Below are positions 554-39,233 of a stretch of DNA of 39,233 nt, piece by piece. Each line of letters begins with the position of its first letter. Positions within the stretch are counted from its first letter, which is position 1. The notes under the pieces are model-generated. The model was not told the origin of the DNA, searched no databases, and saw nothing but the letters and a program-made list of their open reading frames with translations. Made by a program: the position numbers and the translations under genes. Source of the DNA: Escherichia phage Peacock. The DNA is taken from the sequence record MK903279.1. The stretch is one strand, 5' to 3'.

Positions 554-583
554 TTGACAAGCAGTACAGACTTAAAGTAGTAT
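554..583 (+). promoter_or_regulatory. Candidate host (sigma70-type) early promoter, T7 A2/A3-like
   Basis: Consensus -35 TTGACA at 554-559, 18-nt spacer, -10 TAGTAT at 578-583, followed by GTACCACAT as in the T7 A3 promoter (recalled). Confidence 0.4.
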
Positions 584-702
584 GTACCACATCAACACGA
601 AACAACGGTGAGTCCCAACACTGAAACGGGATAGCACGGCGACGACAGCCAACGCGAATGCTCTTTAACAATCTGGATAAACTCTTAATGTGCGCCGATA
701 GC

Positions 703-759
703 GACTAACTACAGGGTCTTTGAGTCTACATCTGAAGGCCCTGACTGATAGTCACTAAC
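703..759 (+). promoter_or_regulatory. Conserved structured leader element (R0.3-like, putative RNase III site), copy 1
   Basis: GACTAACTACAGG...CCTGACTGATAGTCACTAAC; upstream CTCTTTAACAATCTGG matches the sequence preceding T7 R0.3 as recalled; imperfect inverted repeat AGTGA..CAGG / CCTG..TCACT. Confidence 0.45.
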
Positions 760-766
760 TTAACGG

Positions 767-1021
767 ATGGACACTATGAAACACTTAAGCACAATCACTA
801 ATCACAATGAAGTATTCGTGAACACTAAAGGTTATGCGTGGATTCAGCTTAAAGAGACGACAGGAGCGCGTCACCGTGTGGTAGTGCGCAAGGTCTCAAG
901 CAAGCCGTTCAGCAACTACAGCGTAGATACTGTTCGTATAGACAACGAGACCTACCTGATAGACTCGCAGATAACCGTGAGTCCTACAGCGAGCGCCTCA
1001 GCTCCTTATTTCGCTAACTGA
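767..1021 (+). CDS. Hypothetical early protein (84 aa)
   Basis: ORF directly downstream of leader element copy 1; no motif recognised. Alternative start at second ATG (776). Confidence 0.55.
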   Translation: MDTMKHLSTITNHNEVFVNTKGYAWIQLKETTGARHRVVVRKVSSKPFSNYSVDTVRIDNETYLIDSQITVSPTASASAPYFAN

Positions 1022-1025
1022 GAGT

Positions 1026-1076
1026 GATTAACTACAGGTCGTTAGACTCATAGCGGCCTGACTGATAGTCACTAAC
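1026..1076 (+). promoter_or_regulatory. Conserved structured leader element, copy 2
   Basis: GATTAACTACAGGTCGTTAGACTCATAGCGGCCTGACTGATAGTCACTAAC; differs from copy 3 by a single base. Confidence 0.5.
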
Positions 1077-1094
1077 AACCTAAGAGGATTCATT

Positions 1095-1373
1095 ATGAGA
1101 CTGAACAAAGCTACAGCAGAAGCCTTTCGCAAGGAGCTTGAATCAAGATTATTGTGTGGAGTGGCGGAAGGAGCCGCTCGGTATAAAGAGAATGGTCTAA
1201 CGTTCAAGCGCTTTATGTGGGATTGCTATCACGGAGTGGGCCATAAAAAGGCGCAGGATATAATCACCAGTAACAATGCGGAAGTGCAAGTGGTGGGAGG
1301 ATATATGACTAACGTGAAGGATTCACACATAGAGACCATGCTCAAGAATGCACTTAAAGATGTAGCCTACTAG
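1095..1373 (+). CDS. Hypothetical early protein (92 aa)
   Basis: ORF with AAGAGGA ribosome-binding site 7 nt upstream of ATG; follows element copy 2; no motif recognised. Confidence 0.6.
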   Translation: MRLNKATAEAFRKELESRLLCGVAEGAARYKENGLTFKRFMWDCYHGVGHKKAQDIITSNNAEVQVVGGYMTNVKDSHIETMLKNALKDVAY

Positions 1374-1374
1374 T

Positions 1375-1425
1375 GATTAACTACAGGTCGTTAGACTGAT
1401 AGCGGCCTGACTGATAGTCACTAAC
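1375..1425 (+). promoter_or_regulatory. Conserved structured leader element, copy 3
   Basis: GATTAACTACAGGTCGTTAGACTGATAGCGGCCTGACTGATAGTCACTAAC; near-identical to copy 2. Confidence 0.5.
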
Positions 1426-1457
1426 ATACACACAAACAACTTTGAGAGGATATAACT

Positions 1458-1790
1458 ATGGAACGTAACGCTAACGCATACTATGAGCTGCTGGCTGCAA
1501 CCGTTGAAGCATTTAACGAGCGTATTCAGTACGACGAAATAGCTGAAGGCGATGATTATCACGATGCGCTGCATGAGGTCGTAGACGGTCAGGTTCCGCA
1601 CTATTACCACGAGATTTTCACGGTGATGGCTGCTGATGGTATAGACCACGAGTTCGAAGACTCTGGGCTAATGCCTGATACCAAGGATGTGACGCGTATA
1701 TTGCAAGCTCGCATCTATGAGGCGCTTTATAACGATGTGCTTAATAACTCGGATGTGGTCTGGTTTGAGGCTGAAGAGGACTGCGAGTGA
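1458..1790 (+). CDS. ocr: Ocr-like anti-restriction protein (DNA mimic, T7 gene 0.3 homolog)
   Basis: Translation ...[43 protein letters not shown]... matches T7 Ocr (...[43 protein letters not shown]...) as recalled; highly acidic; GAGAGGA RBS. Confidence 0.9.
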
Positions 1791-1945
1791 TGGTAACTTA
1801 TGGTCTCTGCCAGCACCATGTAGCCAACGCCCGGATTATGGTCAAGACCGGGCAGTTAAACCACGATGCGACTATGCGTCACCTGAAGGCGGTCTATGAG
1901 GGCCGCAAGCGTATTCACGACAGCTTACACGATGAGGGCAAGTAA
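1790..1945 (+). CDS. Small hypothetical ORF (51 aa), translationally coupled to ocr
   Basis: ATG at 1790 overlaps the ocr stop (TGATG); open for 51 codons to TAA 1943-1945; not in ORF track (below 60 aa). Confidence 0.35.
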   Translation: MVTYGLCQHHVANARIMVKTGQLNHDATMRHLKAVYEGRKRIHDSLHDEGK

Positions 1946-1947
1946 AC

Positions 1948-2073
1948 ATGTACCAGATAACGTATAGCAGTGAACAGGCGTTCTACGATGGGTGCTACGA
2001 GATGATGAGGCGCGGGGCTTGCTACGTGGCTAATCACCAGAGCCTGACCATAACGCTGACGGGTGGTTACTGA
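1948..2073 (+). CDS. Small hypothetical ORF (41 aa)
   Basis: ATG at 1948 three nt after the previous stop; 41 codons to TGA 2071-2073; weak RBS. Confidence 0.3.
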   Translation: MYQITYSSEQAFYDGCYEMMRRGACYVANHQSLTITLTGGY

Positions 2074-2143
2074 GTGATAGACGAGAGGTCATCGACTGAT
2101 AGGTGGCCTCAAAGATTGCCACTTACATTGATAGGAGTTAACT

Positions 2144-2233
2144 ATGAACATCGGTTACTGGGTATGCTTATCTCCGGTCATCTTTCTGATAGCTTGGGGA
2201 CTTCTGGACGCAATCAAGCGAGGGTCATTCTAA
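2144..2233 (+). CDS. Small hydrophobic peptide ORF (29 aa)
   Basis: AGGAG RBS 6 nt upstream of ATG 2144; translation MNIGYWVCLSPVIFLIAWGLLDAIKRGSF; stop TAA overlaps the next ATG (TAATG). Alternative reading is the GTG-initiated 2074..2430 track ORF. Confidence 0.25.
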   Translation: MNIGYWVCLSPVIFLIAWGLLDAIKRGSF

Positions 2234-2430
2234 TGAGCTGGGTACTTCTGGGTATCTTCGGCTATGGACTTATCGTCTACGTACTGGTGAGTGACATCAA
2301 CAAGGCGCGTAAAGTCTACAAATTCAACTATGTACGTCTGGGTCGCTGGACTGTACGTCAACCTAACGGGCGATTCATGCGCAACTTAGCAAACGTCTGG
2401 GATATAGCAACACTTGGGAGCAAACTGTAA
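2233..2430 (+). CDS. Small membrane protein (65 aa; may extend upstream to GTG 2074)
   Basis: GAGGG RBS 8 nt upstream of ATG 2233; N-terminal hydrophobic stretch MSWVLLGIFGYGLIVYVLV then basic tail; track ORF 2074..2430 is the same frame with a GTG start. Confidence 0.45.
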   Translation: MSWVLLGIFGYGLIVYVLVSDINKARKVYKFNYVRLGRWTVRQPNGRFMRNLANVWDIATLGSKL

Positions 2431-2756
2431 TGAACAAGTCATACGGGATTAATCTGGTACACTCTATGGACGCAGACATGCAAATGTTAAGCCTACTGGC
2501 TACCGGGTATCGTCACGGAACGTCAAGTCACTCCGCACGTCAACAGCAGGAGAGGGACCGGGTACTGCAAGCAAGACTCCGGGCTGAGGGCCATAAGTCC
2601 GAGCTGATGTGTCTGGCGTATGGTGGACGACCAATCACTGACGATGGTAAACTTTTAGTCTCAGGCTGGAAGGCGATAGACCAACGGTCAACCATCAAGC
2701 ACACGACTCATGGTGACTTCAGTCATCTTCACGCTAACCCACTGATATGCAAGTGA
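2430..2756 (+). CDS. Hypothetical early protein (108 aa)
   Basis: ATG overlaps the preceding stop (TAATG); no motif recognised; occupies the position where T7 carries gene 0.7. Confidence 0.55.
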   Translation: MNKSYGINLVHSMDADMQMLSLLATGYRHGTSSHSARQQQERDRVLQARLRAEGHKSELMCLAYGGRPITDDGKLLVSGWKAIDQRSTIKHTTHGDFSHLHANPLICK

Positions 2757-2761
2757 TTCTG

Positions 2762-2784
2762 ACTTAACTATCACTATAGGACTC
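2762..2784 (+). promoter_or_regulatory. Phage RNA polymerase promoter immediately upstream of gene 1
   Basis: ACTTAACTATCACTATAGGACTC fits the 11-copy family consensus (TAAACTATCACTATAGGGA), +1 G at 2779. Confidence 0.6.
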
Positions 2785-2853: not shown

Positions 2854-5535
2854 ATGAGCGTCATCTCTATTGACAAACACGACTTCTCTGATGTGTCGAA
2901 CGCCATTGAGCCGTTTAACCTGCTGGCTGACCACTACGGGCAAGACCTTGCAGTCAAACAGCTTCAGCTTGAGCATGAGGCATACACTGAAGGCGAGCGA
3001 CGTTTCATCAAAAACCTTGAGCGACAGACTGAGCGCGGGGAACTGGCAGACAATCAGGTCGCCAAGCCTTTGATGCAGACTCTGGTCCCTAAGATTGCGC
3101 AAGCCGTCAGGGAGTGGCATGAAGGTCAAGACGGGAAGCTGTCAACCTCTCGTCCTAGCGTAGCGTTCACCATGTTGAGCACTGAAGAGAAGGCCGTTAA
3201 AGACCGCTCTATGCGCATCTCCTGCGAGTCTGCTGCGGTTATCATACTGAAGGTCATCCTCAGCAAGCTGGTCAAGCCTGAAGGGATACCGATTACACCG
3301 ATGGCCTCAGCGATAGGTCGCACACTTGAGGATGAAATCCGCTTCGGTCGCATTCGTGACAAGGAGAAGGAGCACTTCAAGAAGGCGATAGCTGATAACC
3401 TGAATAAGCGGGCTGGGGCATCCTACAAAAAAGCCTACATGCAAGCGGTTGAGGCATCCATGCTGGAGCAAGGACAACTGGAAGATGCGTGGGGGACTTG
3501 GAGTCCGACCGAGGCTGTCCACGTTGGAATCAAGATGCTTGAGATTGTCATCCAGTCAACACAACTGGTCGAGCTTAAGCGCTACGGTGCTGGCAATGCA
3601 GCGGCTGATGTAGAGATGGTCCACCTGTCAGACTTCTGGGTCAAGAAGATGGCACAACGAGGCTTCAGCCTTGCGGGTATCGCTCCGGTCTATCAACCTT
3701 GCGTCGTTCCACCTAAGCCGTGGACTGGTGTCGTAGGCGGTGGGTACTGGGCCAAAGGTCGCAGACCACTACCATTGATTCGCTTAGGGTCTAAGTCTGC
3801 GGTGGCACGCTATGAAGACGTGTACATGCCTGAAGTCTATGACGCTGTGAATATCATCCAGAATACGCCTTGGAAAGTGAACAAGAAGGTGCTGGACGTG
3901 GTGAACATGGTCGAGAAGTTGAACAACACGCCTATTGATGACATCCCTCAGATGGAGCCACTGAAGCCTGAAGACTATGCGGGTGAGACTGAAGAGGAAC
4001 TCAAGGCATGGAAGAAGACTGCTGCTGGTATCTACCGCCGAGAGAAGGCCCGCCAGTCACGCAGATTGTCACTGAGCTTTATCGTTAACCAAGCGAACAA
4101 GTTCTCTCAGTTCAAGGCCATCTGGTTCCCGTATAACATGGACTGGCGCGGTCGCGTCTACGCTGTGCCGATGTTCAACCCTCAGGGTAACGACATGCAA
4201 AAGGGTCTCCTGACTCTGGCAGTCGGTAAGCCTATTGGTGCTGATGGTTTCAAATGGCTGAAGGTCCACGGTGCAAACTGTGCGGGTGTCGATAAAGTCA
4301 CCTTCGAGGAGCGCATCAAGTGGGTGGAAGATAACCACGACAACATCATGGCTACCGCTAAGGCACCGATGGACAGCATTGAGTGGTGGGGTAAGTTAGA
4401 CTCTCCGTTCTGCTTCCTAGCGTTCTGCTTCGAGTATGCTGGCGTAATGCACCACGGTTTGTCTTACTCCTGCTCGCTGCCGATAGCTTTCGATGGGTCC
4501 TGCTCTGGGATTCAGCACTTCAGCGCGATGCTTCGTGATCACATCGGTGGACATGCAGTAAACCTGACGCCTTCCGGTAAGGTCCAAGACATCTACCGCA
4601 TCGTGTCTGACCGCATTGAGGAGGAGCTTAAAGTCCTGCTGGTTAATGGCACGGACAACGAGGTGGTCACTCACGAGGATAAGAAAACTGGCGAGATTAC
4701 CGAACGTATCAAGCTGGGGACACGAGAGCTGGCCCGCCAGTGGCTGACCTACGGTATGTCACGCAAGGTCCCTAAGCGTTCAGTAATGACTCTGGCCTAC
4801 GGGTCGAAAGAGTATGGCTTCGCAGACCAAGTTTACGAGGACATCGTGATGCCAGCGATTGACTCAGGGTCTGGCGCTATGTTCACCGAGCCAAGCCAAG
4901 CGTCTCGCTTCATGGCTAAGATGATTTGGGAAGCTGTGAGTGGAACCGTAGTTGCTGCTGTTGACGTGATGAAGTGGCTTCAGGGTGCTGCCAAGCTGCT
5001 GGCTGCTGAAGTGAAGGACAAGAAGACTGGAGAAATCCTGAAGCCTTGCCTTCCGGTACACTGGGTCACACCTGATGGGTTCCCGGTCTGGCAGGAATAT
5101 CGCAAGAAGGATACCACTCGTCTGAACCTGATGTTCTTAGGGTCATTCAACCTTCAACCTACGGTCAACAAAGGCACGAAGAAAGAGCTGGACAGGCACA
5201 AGCAGGAGTCAGGCATTAGCCCGAACTTCGTCCACTCACAAGATGGAAGCCACCTACGCAAGACTGTAGTCCACACGCATCGCAAGTATGGCGTGATATC
5301 ATTCGCAGTGATTCACGATAGCTTCGGGACCATCCCGGCTGACGCTGAGTATCTGTTCCGTGGTGTCCGTGAGACGATGGTCGAGACCTACCGAGACAAC
5401 GATGTGCTGTTGGACTTCTACGAGCAGTTTGACTGCCAGCTTCACGAGAGCCAGCGCGACAAGTTGCCAGAGCTTCCGAAGAAAGGTAAACTGAATATCG
5501 AGGACATCTTGTCTTCAGACTATGCATTCGCTTAA
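2854..5535 (+). CDS. Single-subunit DNA-dependent RNA polymerase (T7 gene 1 homolog)
   Basis: 893 aa; N-terminus KHDFSDVSNAIEPFNLLADHYG and C-terminus ...HESQRDKLPELPKKGKLNIEDILSSDYAFA match T7 RNAP as recalled (...FAFA end); specificity-loop region PTVNKGTKKELDRHKQESG present. Confidence 0.97.
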   Translation: MSVISIDKHDFSDVSNAIEPFNLLADHYGQDLAVKQLQLEHEAYTEGERRFIKNLERQTERGELADNQVAKPLMQTLVPKIAQAVREWHEGQDGKLSTSRPSVAFTMLSTEEKAVKDRSMRISCESAAVIILKVILSKLVKPEGIPITPMASAIGRTLEDEIRFGRIRDKEKEHFKKAIADNLNKRAGASYKKAYMQAVEASMLEQGQLEDAWGTWSPTEAVHVGIKMLEIVIQSTQLVELKRYGAGNAAADVEMVHLSDFWVKKMAQRGFSLAGIAPVYQPCVVPPKPWTGVVGGGYWAKGRRPLPLIRLGSKSAVARYEDVYMPEVYDAVNIIQNTPWKVNKKVLDVVNMVEKLNNTPIDDIPQMEPLKPEDYAGETEEELKAWKKTAAGIYRREKARQSRRLSLSFIVNQANKFSQFKAIWFPYNMDWRGRVYAVPMFNPQGNDMQKGLLTLAVGKPIGADGFKWLKVHGANCAGVDKVTFEERIKWVEDNHDNIMATAKAPMDSIEWWGKLDSPFCFLAFCFEYAGVMHHGLSYSCSLPIAFDGSCSGIQHFSAMLRDHIGGHAVNLTPSGKVQDIYRIVSDRIEEELKVLLVNGTDNEVVTHEDKKTGEITERIKLGTRELARQWLTYGMSRKVPKRSVMTLAYGSKEYGFADQVYEDIVMPAIDSGSGAMFTEPSQASRFMAKMIWEAVSGTVVAAVDVMKWLQGAAKLLAAEVKDKKTGEILKPCLPVHWVTPDGFPVWQEYRKKDTTRLNLMFLGSFNLQPTVNKGTKKELDRHKQESGISPNFVHSQDGSHLRKTVVHTHRKYGVISFAVIHDSFGTIPADAEYLFRGVRETMVETYRDNDVLLDFYEQFDCQLHESQRDKLPELPKKGKLNIEDILSSDYAFA

Positions 5536-5842: not shown

Positions 5843-5959
5843 ATGTTCAACCGTAAACTGAAAGCACGTATCGCAGATCTCGAAGCAACCATCCAGCGTC
5901 AGGACCATAATCTTGAGCTGGCTAACCGGGAGCACGCACGGCTAAGGGCCAAGATTTAG
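5843..5959 (+). CDS. Small ORF (38 aa), in frame with downstream ORF across a TAG
   Basis: AGAGGT RBS; translation MFNRKLKARIADLEATIQRQDHNLELANREHARLRAKI, then TAG at 5957-5959. Confidence 0.3.
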   Translation: MFNRKLKARIADLEATIQRQDHNLELANREHARLRAKI

Positions 5960-6304: not shown

Positions 6305-6322
6305 ACTATCACTATAGGATTA
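6300..6322 (+). promoter_or_regulatory. Phage promoter (phi1.1-like)
   Basis: CTAAACTATCACTATAGGATTAG; +1 G at 6317. Confidence 0.7.
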
Positions 6323-6364
6323 GACTCAAGGTCATGACTCAAAGTCGTGGCCTTCATGATTAAC
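6318..6364 (+). promoter_or_regulatory. RNase III-type processing hairpin (R1.1-like)
   Basis: AGACTCAAGGTCAT...GTGGCCTTCATGATTA; same element recurs at 13114 and 36221 and resembles T7 R0.3 (ACTCAAGG...GCCCTTTATGATA) as recalled. Confidence 0.5.
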
Positions 6365-6402
6365 CCTTACTACTAAACGTAAACTACTGGAGATTTAGCC
6401 AT

Positions 6403-12949: not shown

Positions 12950-13113
12950 TGTTAAAGAAACTTAAAGCTCGATACCATCGGTTCATGTACAAATGGTGGA
13001 GCGATGAAGCAACCTGCCTGTCGAACATTCTGGGAGACCAGAGGTTCGACTCTAAGGCATGGAAGAAAGCTAACCGGAAGTTCATGTACCACTTCTTGCG
13101 TACAGACTTATAG
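12949..13113 (+). CDS. Small basic hypothetical protein (54 aa, GTG start)
   Basis: GGAGG RBS 7 nt upstream of GTG 12949; not in ORF track (below 60 aa). Confidence 0.4.
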
Positions 13114-13160
13114 GTCTAGACTCAAGGTCATTCACATCGAGTGGCCTTTATGATTAGACT
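13114..13160 (+). promoter_or_regulatory. RNase III-type processing hairpin (R4.7-like)
   Basis: GGTCTAGACTCAAGGTCATTCACATCGAGTGGCCTTTATGATTAGAC; AAGGTCAT can pair with GTGGCCTT (G-U pairs allowed). Confidence 0.5.
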
Positions 13161-13177
13161 AAAGCGGAGGATTAACC

Positions 13178-15349
13178 ATGTTTGACCTTAAGGATATTTG
13201 GGGTTCGGACATCGAGACCAACGGTCTCCTTGACACCGTGTCCCAGTTCCATTGTGGGGTCCTGATTAATGCCGAGTCGAATGAGACCCTTAAGTATGGG
13301 GTAGCTCCGATGGTCGGTATCATCGGTGGCTTCAAAGAGTATGTGCAGAAGGTGGAAGAGATTGCTGCAACGCCTACGGGTATGCTGGTATTCCATAACG
13401 GTATCAACTATGACGTCCCGGCTATAGACAAGCTGAAGCGTTTGTACTTTGGGAAACGCTTTAACTTCCCGAAACACAAGATGATTGATACCTTGGTGTT
13501 GGGCCGCTTGATGTATCCCAACATTAAGTTCTCAGACATGGGCGCGGTGAAAGCTGGTCGTCTGCCTCCTAAGATGATGGGACGCCAGTCTCTTGAGGCT
13601 TGGGGCTATCGTCTCGGTGAGATGAAGGGTGAGTACAAACACGATTACGTTGCCAAGTGCAAGGCCGAAGGTATCGAATATAAGGCTGGGGACGAATGGT
13701 TGTTCCCGTCTCAGGAGATGCTGGACTATAACGTTCAGGACGTTGTGGTCACACTGGCGTTGTTCAAGAAGTTCCTGACTGACAAGTATTACTTCCAGTC
13801 TGAACAGTTCGCTTTCGAACAGATTTATGCGTTGCGTCTGGAACATGATGCTGCGTGGACCTGTGCGAAGATGGAGCGTAACGGCTATCCGATGAATACC
13901 GAGATGGTCGAAGGCTTATATCGTGAACTCACCGTCAAACGTGCAGAGCTGCTGGACAAGCTGCGTTCGACTTTCGGTAGCTGGTATGCACCGAAGGGAG
14001 GCAAGGAGTTCTTCAGACATCCACGGACAGGTAAGGACCTTCCGAAGTATCCGCGAGTCGTGTATCCTAAGGTTGGGTCAGTATTCAAGAAGCCGAAGAA
14101 CAAAGCTCAACGCTTAGGTCTGGAGCCTTGCGAGTTCGACTCACGAGACACGATGGAAGGAGCACCATTCACGCCAATCACTTACGTTGAGTTTAATCCG
14201 GGAAGCGGAGACCACTTAGCGAAAGTTCTGATGGAGCGTGGTTGGGAGCCTGTGGACTTCACTGACACCGGGAAACCTGTAGTCGATGACGAGACGTTGG
14301 AACACGTTAAGTTACCAGACGCAGAGGCTCAGGCTTGCGTAGAGCTGGTCCGTGAGTATCTGGTGGTCCAGAAGCGCATCGGTCAGGCTGCTGAAGGTAA
14401 GAACGCATGGTTGAAACTTGTAGGTCCAGACGGACGTATGCACGGTTCAATCAACCCATGTGGTGCAGTAACCGGACGTGCGACCCATAGTTCACCAAAC
14501 ATGGCTCAGGTACCGGCTAACGGTGCTCCGTATGGTGAGACTTGCCGTGGTGCTTTTGGTGCAGCGTGGAACAAGAAGGACGGTAAACCAGACCCTTGGA
14601 TTCAAGTAGGTGTGGATGCTTCAGGTCTTGAGCTTCGTTGTCTGGGGAATCGAGCGGCTCCGTTTGATGGTGGAGACTATGCGAAGACTGTGGTCGAAGG
14701 TGACATCCACTGGGCCAACGCAGTCAACGCTGGGTTAGCACCTAACGTTCCACGCGATAAGTCGAACCACGACCACGATGCTTTCCGTAATAACGCCAAG
14801 ACGTTCATCTATGCGTTCCTGTATGGTGCAGGGGCCGCGAAGATTGGACTTATAGTTGGAGGTGGTAAGAAGGAAGGTGCGGCCCTGATGAAGAAATTCA
14901 TTGAGGGTACACCAGCTATCAAGGACCTGCGAGAGGCTGTGCAGAACACGCTCATCTCAGAGTCGAAGTGGGTAGATGGTGAGAACATCGTGAAGTGGAA
15001 ACGTCGCTGGCTGAAAGGTCTGGATGGTCGCCGAATTCACATCCGGTCGCCACACTCAGCACTTAACGCTCTACTTCAGGGTGATGGTGCGGTTGTCTGT
15101 AAGCACTGGATTGTCGAGACCGAGCGTATGCTCGAAGAGGCCGGGTATGTCCACGGCTGGGAAGGAGACTTCGCGTACATGGCATGGGTTCACGATGAGC
15201 TACAGATTGCGTGTCGTACTCAGGAGATTGCCGAAGAAGTCGTCAAAATTGCTCAACTTGCTATGCGTAAGGTGGGTGAGTTCTATAACTTTAAATGTGT
15301 CCTTGATACCGAAGGTAAGATTGGACCAACGTGGAAGGAGTGTCACTAA
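13178..15349 (+). CDS. DNA polymerase (T7 gene 5 homolog)
   Basis: 723 aa; ...DIETNGLL...FHCGV..., ...GEMKGEYKHDY..., ...AKTFIYAFLYGAG..., ...DFAYMAWVHDELQ... match T7 gp5 as recalled. Confidence 0.95.
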   Translation: MFDLKDIWGSDIETNGLLDTVSQFHCGVLINAESNETLKYGVAPMVGIIGGFKEYVQKVEEIAATPTGMLVFHNGINYDVPAIDKLKRLYFGKRFNFPKHKMIDTLVLGRLMYPNIKFSDMGAVKAGRLPPKMMGRQSLEAWGYRLGEMKGEYKHDYVAKCKAEGIEYKAGDEWLFPSQEMLDYNVQDVVVTLALFKKFLTDKYYFQSEQFAFEQIYALRLEHDAAWTCAKMERNGYPMNTEMVEGLYRELTVKRAELLDKLRSTFGSWYAPKGGKEFFRHPRTGKDLPKYPRVVYPKVGSVFKKPKNKAQRLGLEPCEFDSRDTMEGAPFTPITYVEFNPGSGDHLAKVLMERGWEPVDFTDTGKPVVDDETLEHVKLPDAEAQACVELVREYLVVQKRIGQAAEGKNAWLKLVGPDGRMHGSINPCGAVTGRATHSSPNMAQVPANGAPYGETCRGAFGAAWNKKDGKPDPWIQVGVDASGLELRCLGNRAAPFDGGDYAKTVVEGDIHWANAVNAGLAPNVPRDKSNHDHDAFRNNAKTFIYAFLYGAGAAKIGLIVGGGKKEGAALMKKFIEGTPAIKDLREAVQNTLISESKWVDGENIVKWKRRWLKGLDGRRIHIRSPHSALNALLQGDGAVVCKHWIVETERMLEEAGYVHGWEGDFAYMAWVHDELQIACRTQEIAEEVVKIAQLAMRKVGEFYNFKCVLDTEGKIGPTWKECH

Positions 15350-18309: not shown

Positions 18310-19878
18310 ATGGCTGAACGTGAAGGGTTCGCTGCTGAAGGAGCCAAAGCGGTCTATGACCGACTGAAGAACGGTAGACAGCCATATGAGACACGCGCTC
18401 AGAACTGTGCTGCTGTCACTATCCCGTCACTATTTCCTAAGGAGTCAGACAACTCGTCTACCGAGTACACAACTCCGTGGCAAGCTGTAGGTGCTCGCTG
18501 TCTTAACAACTTGGCTGCAAAGCTGATGTTGGCGTTATTCCCTCAGTCACCGTGGATGCGTCTGACAGTCTCAGAATACGAGGCCAAGACCTTGAGTCAA
18601 GACTCAGAGGCAGCTGCTCGTGTTGACGAAGGGCTGGCTATGGTCGAACGTGTGTTAATGGCCTACATGGAGACTAACAGCTTCCGTGTTCCACTGTTCG
18701 AAGCTCTGAAACAGCTTATCGTCTCAGGTAACTGTCTTCTCTACATTCCTCCTCCAGAACAAGGAACCTACAGTCCCATGCGAATGTACCGCTTAGTGTC
18801 TTACGTTGTTCAACGTGATGCGTTCGGTAACATCTTGCAGATTGTGACTCTCGACAAGGTAGCGTTCAGTGCCCTACCGGAAGACGTGAAGTCTCAGCTC
18901 AACGCAGACGACTATGAGCCTGACACCGAGCTTGAAGTGTATACGCACATCTACCGTCAAGACGACGAGTATCTACGCTACGAGGAAGTGGAAGGAATTG
19001 AGGTAGCAGGGACCGATGGTTCCTACCCGCTGACTGCATGTCCGTACATCCCGGTACGAATGGTTCGACTGGATGGTGAAGACTACGGTCGTTCTTACTG
19101 CGAAGAGTATCTGGGAGACCTGAACTCTCTGGAGACGATTACAGAAGCTATCACCAAAATGGCTAAGGTAGCCTCCAAGGTGGTGGGCCTCGTTAACCCG
19201 AACGGCATCACGCAACCTCGACGTCTGAACAAGGCGGCTACAGGTGAGTTCGTTGCTGGTCGCGTTGAGGACATCAACTTCCTGCAACTGACGAAAGGTC
19301 AGGACTTTACGATTGCTAAGTCGGTGGCTGACGCTATCGAGCAACGTTTAGGCTGGGCCTTCCTTCTTAATAGTGCTGTTCAGCGTAATGCCGAGCGTGT
19401 CACTGCTGAAGAGATTCGTTATGTTGCTGGCGAACTGGAGGCGACCTTAGGTGGCGTGTACTCAGTACAGTCACAAGAGCTTCAGTTACCTATCGTCCGT
19501 GTGCTGATGAACCAGCTTCAGTCTGCTGGAATGATTCCTGACCTTCCGAAAGAAGCGGTAGAGCCTACGGTCTCCACTGGTCTGGAAGCGTTAGGTCGTG
19601 GTCAAGACTTAGAGAAGCTGACTCAGGCAGTCAACATGATGACCGGGCTACAGCCTCTGCAACAGGACCCAGACATTAACTTGCCGACCCTGAAGCTGCG
19701 ACTGCTGAATGCCTTAGGCATTGACACCGCTGGTCTACTCCTTACGCAGGACGAGAAGTTGCAACGTATGGCTGAACAATCCGCTCAAGGAGCTGTGGTC
19801 AACGGTGCGTCTGCTGCTGGTGCTAACATGGGAGCTACTGTTGGACAAGTAGCTGGTGAGGACGTGGCTCAAGCCTAA
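18310..19878 (+). CDS. Portal (head-to-tail connector) protein (T7 gene 8 homolog)
   Basis: ...YETRAQNCAA.TIPSLFPKESDNSSTEYTTPWQAVGAR.LNNLA.KLMLALFP... and ...YRLVSYVVQRDAFGNILQ... match T7 gp8. Confidence 0.95.
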   Translation: MAEREGFAAEGAKAVYDRLKNGRQPYETRAQNCAAVTIPSLFPKESDNSSTEYTTPWQAVGARCLNNLAAKLMLALFPQSPWMRLTVSEYEAKTLSQDSEAAARVDEGLAMVERVLMAYMETNSFRVPLFEALKQLIVSGNCLLYIPPPEQGTYSPMRMYRLVSYVVQRDAFGNILQIVTLDKVAFSALPEDVKSQLNADDYEPDTELEVYTHIYRQDDEYLRYEEVEGIEVAGTDGSYPLTACPYIPVRMVRLDGEDYGRSYCEEYLGDLNSLETITEAITKMAKVASKVVGLVNPNGITQPRRLNKAATGEFVAGRVEDINFLQLTKGQDFTIAKSVADAIEQRLGWAFLLNSAVQRNAERVTAEEIRYVAGELEATLGGVYSVQSQELQLPIVRVLMNQLQSAGMIPDLPKEAVEPTVSTGLEALGRGQDLEKLTQAVNMMTGLQPLQQDPDINLPTLKLRLLNALGIDTAGLLLTQDEKLQRMAEQSAQGAVVNGASAAGANMGATVGQVAGEDVAQA

Positions 19879-35960: not shown

Positions 35961-36220
35961 CTCAGATGGACTTAGAGAAGTTCCTCTTGATGCTTGATAC
36001 TGAACGTGCTCGACTTATGCTGAAAGACTTGCGGGATGACACTAAGCGTTCACCTCAGCTCTACAACGCCATTGAGAAGCTGCTTGCTCGTCACAACTTT
36101 GTGTTAAGCAAGGTGTCTGTGGACGAGAAGACGCTGGCTGATATGGAGGCCCTGAACGCAGAGTACGATAAGGTGCTTTCAGCGACTGAGGATAATGACA
36201 CCGGGTATGGTGTTCAATAA
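35957..36220 (+). CDS. Terminase small subunit (T7 gene 18 homolog)
   Basis: ...LLMLDTERARLMLKDLRDDTKRSPQLYNAIEKLLARHNF... matches T7 gp18 (...LEMLDTAMAQRMLADLSDHERRSPQLYNAINKLLDRHKF...). Confidence 0.85.
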   Translation: MTQMDLEKFLLMLDTERARLMLKDLRDDTKRSPQLYNAIEKLLARHNFVLSKVSVDEKTLADMEALNAEYDKVLSATEDNDTGYGVQ

Positions 36221-36270
36221 GTGTTAGACTCAAGGTCATTACTATATGTAGTGGCCTTTATGGTTAACAC
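36221..36270 (+). promoter_or_regulatory. RNase III-type processing hairpin (R18.5-like)
   Basis: GTGTTAGACTCAAGGTCATTACTATATGTAGTGGCCTTTATGGTTAACAC; third copy of the 6318/13114 element. Confidence 0.5.
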
Positions 36271-36321
36271 TAACTAGTGGAGGCGACTCTACGTGAAATA
36301 TGATAAACCGGGAGGGCAACT

Positions 36322-36771: not shown

Positions 36772-38531
36772 GTAAAGACCTAGTGGCGCGTCAGGCGCTA
36801 ATGACTGCCCGTATGAAGGCAGACTTCGTGTTCTTCCTGTTCGTCCTGTGGAAAGCTCTGTCACTACCAGTCCCGACTCGCTGTCAGATTGACATGGCGA
36901 AGAAACTATCAGCTGGGGACAACAGGCGCTTCATCCTTCAGGCGTTCCGTGGTATCGGTAAGTCCTTCATTACGTGTGCCTTCGTGGTCTGGAAGCTATG
37001 GAACAACCCAGACTTGAAGTTCATGATTGTGTCGGCCTCAAAGGAACGAGCAGATGCGAACTCCATCTTCATCAAGCGAATCATCGACCTCATGCCACAG
37101 CTTCAGGAGCTCAAACCTAAGCAGGGACAGCGAGATGCGGTTATCAGCTTCGACGTTGGGCCAGCCAAGCCAGACCACTCACCTTCTGTTAAGTCAGTTG
37201 GTATCACTGGTCAGTTGACTGGTAGTCGTGCTGACATCCTGATTGCCGATGACGTGGAGGTTCCGAACAACTCAGCGACTCAGGCTGCACGAGACCGTCT
37301 GTCAGAGCTTGTGAAAGAGTTCGACGCTATTCTGAAGCCGGGAGGTACAATCATTTATCTGGGTACTCCTCAGAACGAGATGACCTTGTACCGTGAGCTG
37401 GAAGGTCGTGGATATACCACTACTATCTGGCCTGCTCGTTATCCACGCGACAGGAAGGACTGGCAGTCTTACGGCGACCGTCTGGCTCCTATGCTTCAGG
37501 CAGAGCTGGAAGAGGACCCTGAGTCCTTCTACTGGCGTCCGACTGATGAAGTACGATTCGATGATACGGACCTGAAGGAACGTGAGCTGTCCTACGGTAA
37601 AGCTGGCTTCGCTCTACAGTTCATGCTTAACCCGAACCTGAGTGATGCCGAGAAGTACCCTCTGAAGCTCCGTGACCTTATCGTAGCCGACTTGGACCCA
37701 GCGTCCAGCCCAATGGTCTACCAATGGTTGCCGAACCCTCAGAACAAGCGTGAGGACGTTCCTAACGTTGGACTCATTGGTGACTCGTACCACACGTATC
37801 AGACTGTAGGTTCTGCCTTCAGCTCATACACCCAGAAGATTCTGGTCATTGACCCTAGTGGTCGTGGTAAGGATGAAACTGGTTATGCGGTACTGTATCA
37901 GCTCAACGGCTACATCTTCGCTATGGAAGTAGGTGGTATGCGTGGTGGTTATGAAGACTCTACGTTGGAAGCCTTGGCTAAGATTGGTCGTAAGTGGAAG
38001 GTCAACGAGTACGTCATTGAGGGTAACTTCGGTGATGGTATGTACCTTGAGTTATTCAAGCCTGTAGCTGCCCGTATCCATCCTGCTGCTGTAACTGAAG
38101 TGAAGAGTAAGGGTCAGAAAGAACTACGCATCTGTGACGTTCTGGAGCCTATCATGGGGTCTCACAGACTTATCGTTAACGCTGCTGCTATCGTCCAAGA
38201 CTACCAGTCAGCCTCTGATAAGGATGGTGTTCGTAATCCTATCTACTCTCTCTTCTACCAGATGACACGTATATCTCGTGAACGTGGCGCCTTGGCACAC
38301 GATGACCGACTTGATGCGCTGGCTATCGGTGTACAGTTCTTCGTTGAGTCTATGGCTAAGGATGCCAACAAAGGCGAACGTGAAGTAACTGAGGAGTGGC
38401 TGGAGGAACAGATGGAGAACCCACGGAAAGGCTTCGAGTCCATCCACACTGAGTTCTGGGACAATGGGGTCCGGGTAACTCACGATACGGACGACGAGCT
38501 TGGACTAGGGTCCTACGTTACGTTCCACTAG
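36768..38531 (+). CDS. Terminase large subunit (T7 gene 19 homolog), TTG start
   Basis: ...[59 protein letters not shown]... matches T7 gp19 including the Walker A region; AAGGAGG RBS 7 nt upstream of TTG 36768 gives the same N-terminal length as T7. Confidence 0.95.
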
Positions 38532-38625: not shown

Positions 38626-38648
38626 ACTTAACTATCACTATAGGGAAG
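38626..38648 (+). promoter_or_regulatory. Phage promoter (phiOR-like)
   Basis: GACTTAACTATCACTATAGGGAAGACC; +1 G at 38643. Confidence 0.7.
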
Positions 38649-38828
38649 ACCCCCGGTTACTTATAGTATTACTGTAGTGAATATACATATGCAGACTTTA
38701 TGCAAGACCTTAGGAGGCAGACTCCGAGTTCTTACCTAAGGCTTGCACCGCTGTAAGGAGGGTGATATTAATCATAATCCCTCCAATACAGATAGTCACC
38801 GACCATAGATACAGGAGGTATGTAGCAT

Positions 38829-38987
38829 ATGGCAAAGACCAAAGCTGTACTTAAAGCTCTGGCGACCAATCGAGCTACATACAGGTTTCTTGCTGCTGTT
38901 CTACTTGCTGCTGGCGTTACTGCTGGAAGTCAGTGGGTCGGGTGGGTCGAGACTCTCGTATGTACTCTGGTCTCTCAGTGTAATTAA
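38829..38987 (+). CDS. Gene 19.5-like small protein (52 aa)
   Basis: ...TYRFLAAVLLAAG... resembles T7 gp19.5 (...VTYRFLVVLCAALG...); GGAGGT RBS; not in ORF track (below 60 aa). Confidence 0.55.
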   Translation: MAKTKAVLKALATNRATYRFLAAVLLAAGVTAGSQWVGWVETLVCTLVSQCN

Positions 38988-39020
38988 CGCAATCATGGTA
39001 ACGATTCATGAGCGGAAGAC

Positions 39021-39063
39021 CTAAGGTCAGTACGTGGATAAAGACTCACTCTACTGACCTTAG
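39021..39063 (+). repeat. Perfect 12-bp inverted repeat (hairpin) near the right genome end
   Basis: CTAAGGTCAGTA (39021-39032) and TACTGACCTTAG (39052-39063) around a 19-nt spacer. Confidence 0.6.
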
Positions 39064-39186
39064 CTACTGTAGTCAAGGACTTTAGGTAACACCATTCAGG
39101 CTCTCACCTCTGGTCTACCTACTGATTGGTTCACTGGTCGTCATCCGATGGTCTTAGACCTACGGTCCTTGACCTACAGTAGCTGG
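39061..39186 (+). repeat. Right-end repeat region: imperfect inverted repeat and ACCTACAGT-type motifs
   Basis: TAGCTACTGTAGTCAAGG (39061-39078) is the near reverse complement of CCTTGACCTACAGTAGCTGG (39167-39186); GACCTACGGT / GACCTACAGT motifs mirror those at 247-300. Confidence 0.5.
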
Positions 39187-39233
39187 TTCCTAAGTAGGGA
39201 CGATGAGTTTTGGACCAAAAGTTTGAGACCACA

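Follow-up and report, generated by a model that had tools for sequence, protein, structure and literature searches.

A probable T7-type early transcription unit with repeated RNase III-type hairpins and no gp0.7 kinase gene in Escherichia phage Peacock

The RNA-processing hairpins of bacteriophage T7 act within a single read-through transcript. These RNase III processing signals were reportedly described by Dunn and Studier in 1983, in the account from which the T7 coordinates used here derive, and R1.1 is said to have been the subject of work in the Nicholson laboratory. R0.5 and R1.1 belong to the early RNase III sites of T7 (PMC3643576). The gp0.7 kinase of T7 (T7K) is a hyperpromiscuous anti-defence kinase, and phages that carry it deplete serine, threonine and tyrosine in their early proteins (PMC13645617); it is also reported to stimulate RNase III (Mayer and Schweiger 1983). 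In T4-type phages, PeSL cassettes combine an early promoter with a stem-loop (Arbiol et al. 2010, PMC2839356; Comeau et al. 2014, PMC4122927). Here we compare the early region of Escherichia phage Peacock with these systems.

The window, that is, the whole 39,233-nt stretch analysed, is the complete genome of a Kayfunavirus, a K1F-like coliphage of the T7 group; it holds no right-hand copy of the terminal repeat. Over the left 6 kb compared, it is collinear with ECG4, LS3 and Vec13, all Kayfunavirus, at 92.6–95.3% DNA identity, and it has gene order and protein families in common with these records and with LM33_P1 and Hafnia phage Ca. The ECG4 early region has the same arrangement (R-A-R-B-R-ocr-0.4-D-R-E-F-G). 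The parts of the early region (Ocr, a gp0.4 homologue and RNase III signals) are textbook material and near-identical genomes are already public; still, Peacock matches no GenBank record exactly, and its second and third hairpins, diverged in ECG4, are nearly identical. In public Kayfunavirus records the early genes are named hypothetical, or Ocr is wrongly labelled a kinase, and no hairpin is annotated in the records examined.

The region is very probably a class I (early) transcription unit of the T7 type, with RNase III-type hairpins, a gp0.4-type gene, no kinase and exchange of cassettes among relatives, which supports the first-pass annotation in its reading of a T7-like early layout that has Ocr and lacks the 0.7 kinase. 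The strongest sigma-70-type promoter found by consensus scan, TTGACA-18-TAGTAT at 554..583 on the plus strand (10/12 positions), probably gives rise to the early transcript crossing the region, by analogy with the T7 promoters A1–A3; a T7 A1-like TTGACT lies at 413. Host RNA polymerase would start at sigma-70 promoters at ~413–583 and transcribe rightwards. The right border is gene 1 (2854..5535, plus strand), an 893-aa ORF for a single-subunit RNA polymerase with 62% identity to T7 gp1. Before gene 1, T7 has an R1-type hairpin; Peacock instead has a phage-RNA-polymerase-type promoter motif (2765..2782, plus strand, 87 nt upstream of the gene), and 2750–2853 showed no R1-type hairpin, with a folding z of −0.43 and no covariance-model match. 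The motif occurs 10 times in the genome, always on the plus strand, against 0.01 expected, and stands at the same offset before gene 1 in all Kayfunavirus-type loci.

Between these borders lie four copies of a hairpin. Three ~50-nt elements had been noted at first, copies 2 and 3 differing by one base; the near-identity holds, as c2 (1023–1077) and c3 (1372–1426) differ at 1/55 positions with c1 (697–762) more diverged, but the count does not, a fourth copy, c4 (within 2068–2131), having been overlooked upstream of the ORF at 2144. As RNase III-type hairpins on the plus strand, the copies span 699..757 (c1; −22.9 kcal/mol, z −2.5 against shuffled sequence, 68.2 bits with the covariance model), 1022..1077 (c2, cassette-associated; −24.7 kcal/mol, z −3.9, 81.7 bits), 1371..1426 (c3; z −3.5, 85 bits) and 2072..2127 (c4; z only a modest −1.8, 71.7 bits). 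All four form an irregular two-stem hairpin of ~55 nt, in which 20 pairs form two helices, a lower and an upper stem with an asymmetric internal loop (~4 and 5 nt) between them, and the T7 sites fold alike. The internal loop of c1–c3 reads ACUA / ACUGA, compared with the common ACUC / UAUGA of T7, and is nearest to that of T7 R1. The first hairpin after the promoters, c1, whose loop is longer, corresponds in position to T7 R0.3; a hairpin of its type comes first in 19/21 related loci typed (window included). The last, c4, is equivalent to T7 R0.5 in both position and sequence (GAGUGAUAGAC...GGUC...GGCCU...CACUU). Placement is regular too: 47/52 measured hairpins start on the stop codon of the preceding gene or immediately ahead of it, and in related early regions the next ATG typically follows 12–16 nt past the covariance-model end. 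A scan of the whole window with Rfam at gathering thresholds gave no match, and no T7 RNase III family.

Judged by homology and structure, the four repeats are predicted T7-type RNase III processing hairpins, as the likeness to reiterated RNase III sites first remarked on had suggested. First, a covariance model built only from the four window copies and then run on T7 gave seven matches at E<0.02 (20.9–35 bits) and no other at E<0.1. These lie upstream of gene 0.3 (849-908), at 0.4/0.5 (1424-1486), 0.7/1 (3097-3155) and 1/1.1 (5844-5902), before 4.7 (13850-13909), before 6.5 (18498-18577) and at 18/18.5 (36813-36873), positions that we take to be R0.3, R0.5, R1, R1.1, R4.7, R6.5 and R18.5 of Dunn and Studier 1983; T7 GenBank records do not list RNase III sites as features. 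Second, in a set of 94 hairpin copies drawn from related phages, pairing was seen in 93.8% of cells, compared with 27–49% in slid controls, and 17/20 base pairs showed compensatory changes, with G–U pairs frequent, counts that are inflated because the model served to fit the alignment behind them. With that same fitting in mind, the covariation points to RNA-level structural selection on the transcribed strand. The repeats are no product of chance, as they fold better than shuffles and also covary. Third, like the T7 signals, the Peacock hairpins are two-stem structures with an asymmetric loop, set on the transcribed strand in the gap from a stop codon to the following RBS, with sites ahead of ocr and past the 0.4 block; unlike T7, Peacock has two additional sites upstream of ocr, each with its own gene.

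Host RNase III would be expected to cut each hairpin once, near 746, 1063, 1412 and 2113 respectively, each time on the 3′ side of the internal loop; these predicted cuts (~746/747, ~1063/1064, ~1412/1413 and ~2113/2114 in c1–c4) presumably correspond to those of T7, from whose coordinates (Dunn and Studier 1983) we transferred them. The resulting mRNAs would be A, B, ocr-0.4-D, and E-F-G continuing into gene 1. The RNA upstream of each cut would end in a protective hairpin, and that downstream would start 30–45 nt before the start codon, just 5′ of the RBS.

All eight ORFs of the first-pass annotation exist in the window at the coordinates given there. The small early ORFs are conserved among related phages, phage-restricted and under purifying selection, with pN/pS of 0.2–0.63 across all of the ORFs and SD-like motifs at each. 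Coupling is tight: at ocr/1790, 2144/2233 and 2233/2430 the neighbouring frames share a single base (TGATG or TAATG), and the ORF at 1948 starts 2 nt past the stop of the preceding one. Ocr alone exceeds the Pfam cut-offs among the early ORFs. It is encoded at 1458..1790 on the plus strand, as had been proposed, by the homologue of gene 0.3, whose product is an acidic DNA-mimic anti-restriction protein; it scores 113.2 bits with PF08684 (cut-off 25; E 9.1e-33), is 57% identical to T7 gp0.3 over 94 aa (tblastn) and has a pI of 4.1, Asp and Glu together making up 28 of its 110 residues.

The other small ORFs had been called unknown. That description stands for A, B, D, E, F and G, for which Pfam, PHROG and sequence searches found no characterised relatives, but not for ORF C (1790..1945, plus strand; 51 aa), whose first codon overlaps the stop of ocr, as it does in T7, and which is the syntenic homologue of T7 gp0.4, directly after 0.3. 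The two proteins are 39% identical over 41 aa (blastp), cluster together and both match phrog_5058, 7202 and 25044 (reciprocal PHROG cross-matches). T7 gp0.4 is described as an FtsZ cell-division inhibitor (Kiro et al. 2013, cited in PMC7693777); by sequence, ORF C is a homologue of this gp0.4-type inhibitor, with putative FtsZ binding.

The first two plus-strand genes, ahead of ocr, are accessory cassette genes. The frame of ORF A had been given as 767–1021; the frame holds, and its start is most likely ATG 776 rather than 767 (776..1021; 81 aa, or 84 aa from 767), because 81 aa is the length of 30/42 homologues found and residue 4 is the first that the PHROG match covers. The protein is basic and beta-rich, with homologues down to 68% identity. 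ORF B (1095..1373; 92 aa), between c2 and c3, is basic, with five helices. The confident structure models of A and B matched no solved fold, and PDB sequence searches with A, B and G returned nothing at E<0.09. We rejected A and B as Ocr-like DNA mimics because both are basic, and in sequence, fold and acidic DNA-mimic character neither resembled known anti-defence proteins.

Past ORF C, also on the plus strand, ORF D (1948..2073; 41 aa) matches phrog_33188 weakly (E 1e-5) and varies in presence among relatives, being absent from five loci (L006, L009, L010, L012 and L015). ORF E (2144..2233; 29 aa) occupies the position of T7 gene 0.5. One ORF with a transmembrane segment had been noted; instead, two have a hydrophobic segment, ORF E (Kyte-Doolittle 17-residue maximum 2.04) and ORF F (2233..2430; 65 aa), where it is N-terminal (maximum 2.31) and precedes a basic tail. 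ORF F matches phrog_2385 (E 1.6e-28) and was found in 32/50 loci. ORF G (2430..2756; 108 aa; phrog_7066, E 6e-46) is a genus-wide gene directly upstream of gene 1, with a conserved C-terminal ~84 aa and a variable N-terminus. Against 1.84 billion proteins it forms 143 clusters at 90% identity and only 13 representatives at 50%; the profile search of those representatives recovered 13 proteins, close family save one weak repetitive match, and linked G to no known family.

It is unlikely that A, which has a weak RBS, D and E are chance frames in conserved leader or spacer RNA and not genes. ECG4 annotators called none of the three, E has no PHROG match beside the weak one of D, and A offers few informative substitutions (pN/pS 0.63 from 36 differences). 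However, pN/pS is 0.20 for D over 8 sequences and 0.29 for E, conserved in 9 loci, with high synonymous divergence among these 8–9 distinct sequences; a strong AGGAG RBS precedes E, which is coupled in translation to F; and A has 42 homologue clusters of conserved length and a confident predicted fold (pLDDT 82).

Maps of 28 early regions suggest, from sequence comparison, that A, B, the kinase and other early genes are hairpin-bounded cassettes in related phages. Blocks of homology with the window end at 759-766, 1020, 1077, 1369-1372, 1394, 1406, 1428-1431, 2069-2073 and 2124-2131. Breakpoint clusters fall inside hairpins in 11/43 cases, hairpins making up 11% of the region (binomial p 0.006, a value to be read with the fact that breakpoints inherited by descent are not independent events), and two further clusters are found at the edges of hairpins. 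Plain gene borders (1789, 1931-1948, 2231 and 2428-2438) gather breakpoints as well, so the hairpin positions could reflect selection for intact genes and not recombination. Hairpins of the c2 type stand behind A, B and x4, three genes unrelated to one another, the order of A and B is reversed in Vec13, and one locus (L069) has a c4-type hairpin only, with neither ocr nor 0.4. Conserved hairpins may thus serve as homology patches through which relatives gain, lose and reorder A, B, x4, x6 and the kinase.

If the repeats acted mainly as DNA, as a small mobile or recombinogenic repeat whose RNA fold is incidental, homology breakpoints and cassette borders would likewise coincide with them, and c2 and c3 do form near-identical direct repeats around one gene. 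We regard this as very improbable. Many G–U pairs are kept, whereas selection on the opposite strand or on a cruciform would meet C–A mismatches; every model match at E<0.05 is on the transcribed (plus) strand, with minus-strand scores at the same places dropping to 7–18 bits; the hairpins hold fixed syntenic positions in common with T7, including the late site between 18 and 18.5; and no transposase or integrase gene lies nearby.

Taken as processing hairpins, the repeats invite comparison with the PeSL system. As in PeSL, short stem-loop repeats flank small non-essential genes in a hypervariable early region, and the borders of insertions, deletions and replacements between relatives fall in the repeats. 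Unlike PeSL, in which a strong sigma-70 promoter is joined to a terminator stem-loop, the Peacock hairpins have neither element (the consensus scan found no promoter in or beside them), are predicted RNA-processing signals and have no sequence relation to PeSL; recombination and mini-circles were shown by experiment for PeSL, and exchange at the Peacock hairpins is inferred. That the hairpins are intrinsic terminators or attenuators limiting read-through between early genes, as their stable G+C-containing stems right after stop codons and the transcription-terminating PeSL stem-loops might suggest, is barely credible, as no T-run follows any of c1–c4 (the following sequences are CACTAACTTAACGG, CACTAACAACCTAAG, CACTAACATACACAC and CACTTACATTGATAGG), a terminator scan was empty at all four positions, the T7 homologues are processing sites inside one read-through transcript, and the downstream genes, including gene 1, need that same transcript.

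Going beyond processing, we suggest tentatively, as a possibility that we lean slightly against, that the hairpins of T7-group phages are conserved ~55-bp junctions for the exchange, duplication, reordering and deletion of accessory early genes during co-infection, anti-restriction genes, the anti-defence kinase and genes such as A and B among them, and that A and B are new counter-defence or takeover proteins with new folds; lying ahead of ocr, A and B would then enter the cell and be expressed first. Such a system would be the T7-group counterpart of T4-type PeSL. We found nothing on hairpin-mediated exchange in the T7-like or Autographiviridae literature searched, weak evidence of novelty as the older T7 literature lay mostly outside the search. 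The cassette pattern predicts easy loss or swapping, for example of B between its two 98%-identical repeats, which is relevant to engineered and therapeutic phages, and the hairpin-bounded pattern offers a simple rule by which accessory early genes could be found and delimited across the T7 group. Mainly, the region shows that a T7-type early operon is recoverable through careful reading.

Finally, the absence of the gp0.7 kinase, proposed for the early region, was confirmed for the entire window: tblastn with T7 gp0.7 reached no better E than 1.2, a maximum-sensitivity search of the six-frame translation with a kinase profile reached no better than 1.8, and no ORF before gene 1 exceeds 118 codons, the earlier size limit, which is set within 700–2760 by a GTG extension at 2074–2430. 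This absence is not peculiar to Peacock, as the 18 closest Kayfunavirus-type relatives examined also lack the kinase. The slot itself, from the R0.5-type hairpin to the genes before gene 1, exists in Peacock without the gene, and in seven further G-encoding loci (L058, L059, L064, L065, L066, L068 and L039) the kinase is present beside these hairpins. We considered ORF G as a remnant of the C-terminal shut-off domain of gp0.7 and rejected it for lack of similarity (best E 1.2–1.6). The anti-defence kinase is missing from a large coliphage group, including members under study for phage therapy, which has other small early genes in its stead; for an alternative counter-defence, A, B and G are therefore reasonable candidates to try first. 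The amino acid composition of the early proteins is in line with the depletion observed in kinase carriers (PMC13645617): Ser, Thr and Tyr together make up 12.6% of T7 early proteins compared with 15.1% of the rest of its proteome, and 15.3% compared with 15.5% in Peacock.

Judged by its sequence, the window (39,233 bases) is a complete Kayfunavirus genome. A nucleotide search with its first 6 kb drew matches from 707 phage records, the top ones being Escherichia phages ECG4, LS3/LS2 and Vec13 (92.6–95.3% identity, 95–100% query coverage); the ECG4, Vec13 and LM33_P1 records carry the lineage Autographiviridae, Studiervirinae, Kayfunavirus (the K1F-like group). Given this identity and a T7-like RNA polymerase gene (gene 1, 2854–5535), the feature is the part of a T7-group phage that the host transcribes early. 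The region is a further example of kinds already described.

The region is punctuated by copies of a structured element. A first-pass annotation had counted three; all three are real, but a fourth (2068–2131) lies just 5′ of the ORF at 2144. As the annotation also held, the second and third are nearly identical, differing at 1 of 55 positions (1023–1077 versus 1372–1426), and the copy at 697–762 diverges more than this pair. Folding bears out their proposed structure: each copy has two stems, the lower of about 9 pairs and the upper of 10, on either side of an asymmetric internal loop (about 4 + 5 bases), and a small loop, with folding energies 2.5–3.9 SD below those of shuffled sequences for copies 1–3 and 1.8 SD below for copy 4.

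Three observations bear on the annotation's proposal that these are RNase III sites. First, a covariance model built from the four window copies only, then searched against T7, gave seven matches at E<0.02, each in an intergenic stretch with a documented T7 RNase III site: 849–908 upstream of gene 0.3, 1424–1486 between 0.4 and 0.5, 3097–3155 between 0.7 and 1, 5844–5902 between 1 and 1.1 and, at record positions 13850–13909, 18498–18577 and 36813–36873, before 4.7, before 6.5 and between 18 and 18.5, respectively. Beyond these, the T7 genome held no match to this model below E 0.1. Ten RNase III sites are known in T7, of which the model recovers seven. We take these to be R0.3, R0.5, R1, R1.1, R4.7, R6.5 and R18.5 (Dunn and Studier 1983). 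R0.5 and R1.1 are described as RNase III sites in the T7 early region (PMC3643576). The T7 sites adopt the same folded shape as the window copies, and the resemblance of copy 4 to R0.5 extends base for base through both stems. Second, compensatory changes occur in 7 of the 20 pairs among the four window copies alone and in 17 of 20, with frequent G–U pairs, across 94 matches in 50 related loci, where 93.8% of cells are paired as against 27–49% with partners slid. Third, all model matches at E<0.05 lie on the transcribed strand, no copy has a T-run on its 3′ side and a terminator scan was empty at the hairpin positions. Homology and covariation give good support to reading the elements as T7-type RNase III processing signals, and it is from these two lines that we infer the cleavage itself.

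In all four T7 folds the cut coordinates, which we take to be 890, 1468, 3138 and 5887, coincide at one base in the internal loop's 3′ side. The corresponding window cuts are predicted near 746/747, 1063/1064, 1412/1413 and 2113/2114, and would yield separate mRNAs for ORF A (776–1021); ORF B (1095–1373); ocr (1458–1790) with ORFs C (1790–1945) and D (1948–2073); and ORFs E (2144–2233), F (2233–2430) and G (2430–2756) with gene 1. The covariance model also marks three more RNase III-type hairpins in the window, at 6311–6374, overlapping a phage promoter (6303–6320) as T7 phi1.1A overlaps R1.1; at 13107–13168; and at 36215–36278, between homologues of genes 18 and 18.5, as T7 R18.5.

Every ORF of the first-pass annotation was found where it had been placed, except that the first probably starts at ATG 776, giving 81 aa, the length of 30 of its 42 homologues. 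They are closely packed, with one-base overlaps at the ocr/1790, 2144/2233 and 2233/2430 junctions and the ORF at 1948 starting 2 bases past the preceding stop, and each follows a Shine–Dalgarno-like motif, that of A being weak. All eight are conserved against relatives (pN/pS 0.20–0.63), including the 29-codon (0.29) and 41-codon (0.20) ORFs. The profile search that the annotation had proposed gave PHROG matches for all but the 29-codon ORF. Ocr was correctly named (PF08684, E 9.1e-33; 57% identity to T7 gp0.3 over 94 aa by tblastn), and function is unknown in all the other matched families; the description of the small ORFs as unknowns nevertheless fails for C, which sequence comparison identifies as a homologue of T7 gp0.4. 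The two share 39% identity over 41 residues, are reciprocal matches with the same three PHROGs, fall in one single-linkage cluster and both start on a one-base overlap with the ocr stop. T7 gp0.4 is cited as an FtsZ inhibitor (Kiro et al. 2013, in PMC7693777). A hydrophobic segment is present in two ORFs (2144–2233 and 2233–2430), not one as annotated. In the alignment of G, the C-terminal domain (about 84 residues) is conserved and the N-terminus variable; its family is very narrow (13 representatives among 1.84 billion proteins), and no similarity to gp0.7 was detected. An anti-defence role for the early ORFs, proposed from their position, is a guess.

The reported lack of a 0.7-type kinase was upheld across the whole window, with best E values of 1.2 (tblastn with T7 gp0.7) and 1.8 (a profile of three gp0.7-family proteins against the six-frame translation, all filters off). 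All 18 of the closest Kayfunavirus-type relatives likewise lack a kinase: the absence is real, yet typical of the phage's nearest relatives. Seven further G-encoding loci (L058, L059, L064, L065, L066, L068 and L039) carry a gp0.7-type kinase of 242–244 aa without T7's C-terminal (shut-off) domain, placed in six of the seven between two hairpins and directly 5′ of the E/F/G block; in L059 the upstream hairpin was not detected. F and G are common to the window and these seven loci, six of which have a SAM lyase (PF23780) in place of Ocr, the exception being L039, with Ocr.

According to a recent description, the T7 kinase is hyperpromiscuous and disables many defence systems, and kinase-bearing Autographiviridae are depleted of Ser/Thr/Tyr in their early proteins (PMC13645617). 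In T7 these residues make up 12.6% of early proteins and 15.1% of the remaining proteome, compared with 15.3% and 15.5% in the window; for the ORFs before gene 1, a small sample, the values are 17.0% in the window and 12.1% in T7. These values match a depletion confined to kinase-carrying phages, and the small-sample comparison fits a lineage long without the kinase rather than a recent deletion. Stimulation of RNase III is a further activity for which the kinase is cited (Mayer and Schweiger 1983, in PMC13645617); the window phage retains seven predicted RNase III sites despite lacking the kinase. Two Ocr homologues are labelled 'protein kinase' in public records: Vec13 vec13_03 (1610–1942 of its locus; 96% identical to the window's Ocr) and LM33_P1 GP3 (1121–1624; 85%), the latter a long variant of 167 aa.

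When hairpins and ORF families were mapped across 28 early regions, hairpins proved to begin at a stop codon or just ahead of it, with 12–16 nt typically separating the model's end from the following start codon. The genes between them vary. Of 50 Ocr-bearing loci, 5 have A and 4 have B, in the order B–A in Vec13 versus A–B in the window, and an unrelated 58-aa gene (x4) fills their place in other phages. Several loci carry a 115-aa gene (x6) that weakly matches HTH-type DNA-binding domains, flanked by two hairpins where both were detected (L008, L011, L058). The anti-restriction slot is taken by Ocr, by a SAM lyase (PF23780) or by an unknown 174-aa protein. This last, found in some Kayfunavirus-type phages (L053–L056, for example L054 1420–1944), has no Pfam match; its N-terminal LIGKGAFTKCY resembles a glycine-rich nucleotide-binding loop. 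In L054 (2576–2998), L064, L065 and L068, F and G are separated by an ORF of the Endonuclease VII family (PF02945, E 2.8e-26; about 140 aa), which looks like a homing-endonuclease-type insertion.

Hairpin type tracks position. Wherever a Kayfunavirus-type locus has an upstream gene block, its first hairpin is of the copy 1 type and its last before E/F/G of the copy 4 type, and additional hairpins behind A, B or x4 are all of the copy 2 type; the more distant, kinase-carrying L058 and L066 fit less cleanly. L069 (1–1434) has a single hairpin, of the copy 4 type, followed by x1, F and G, without ocr or 0.4, the layout expected from recombination or deletion between first and last hairpins. In comparisons of the window with 26 relatives, blocks of homology stop inside hairpins, with breakpoint clusters at 700–740, 1020, 1077, 1369–1372, 1394, 1406, 2069–2073 and 2124–2131, and at hairpin edges (759–766, 1428–1431). 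Hairpins make up 11% of the sequence but hold 11 of 43 clusters (binomial p 0.006, for events non-independent through shared ancestry). Because of this non-independence, and because the remaining clusters include plain gene junctions, the hairpins as recombination substrates are a reasonable but not proven reading. The nearest described parallel, the PeSL system of T4-type phages, consists, unlike the window hairpins, of a promoter plus terminator and is experimentally supported (PMC2839356). Processing hairpins as cassette borders may be the sole part going beyond existing descriptions, older T7/K1F literature lying outside this comparison.

A phage-RNA-polymerase-type promoter motif, TAACTATCACTATAGGAC, lies at 2765–2782, 87 nt 5′ of gene 1, a position occupied in T7 by an RNase III site (R1) and not by a phage promoter. 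Its copies number 10 genome-wide, on the + strand only, versus 0.01 expected, and its offset is unchanged throughout the Kayfunavirus-type loci (L001 2786–2799, L002 3001–3014, L003 2838–2851 and others). This layout suggests that gene 1 is under positive feedback.

At the window's right end, comparison of 1–400 with 38634–39233 found no terminal direct repeat; the Vec13 record annotates one of 179 bp, and the window seems to have been deposited with a single copy. A 71-codon ORF at 338–553 matches K1F 'gp0.1' (phrog_30192, E 2e-46) and overlaps the host-promoter region (TTGACT at 413, TTGACA at 554). A stretch of it aligns with the T7 A1–A2 promoter region, and its conservation may reflect promoters instead of coding.
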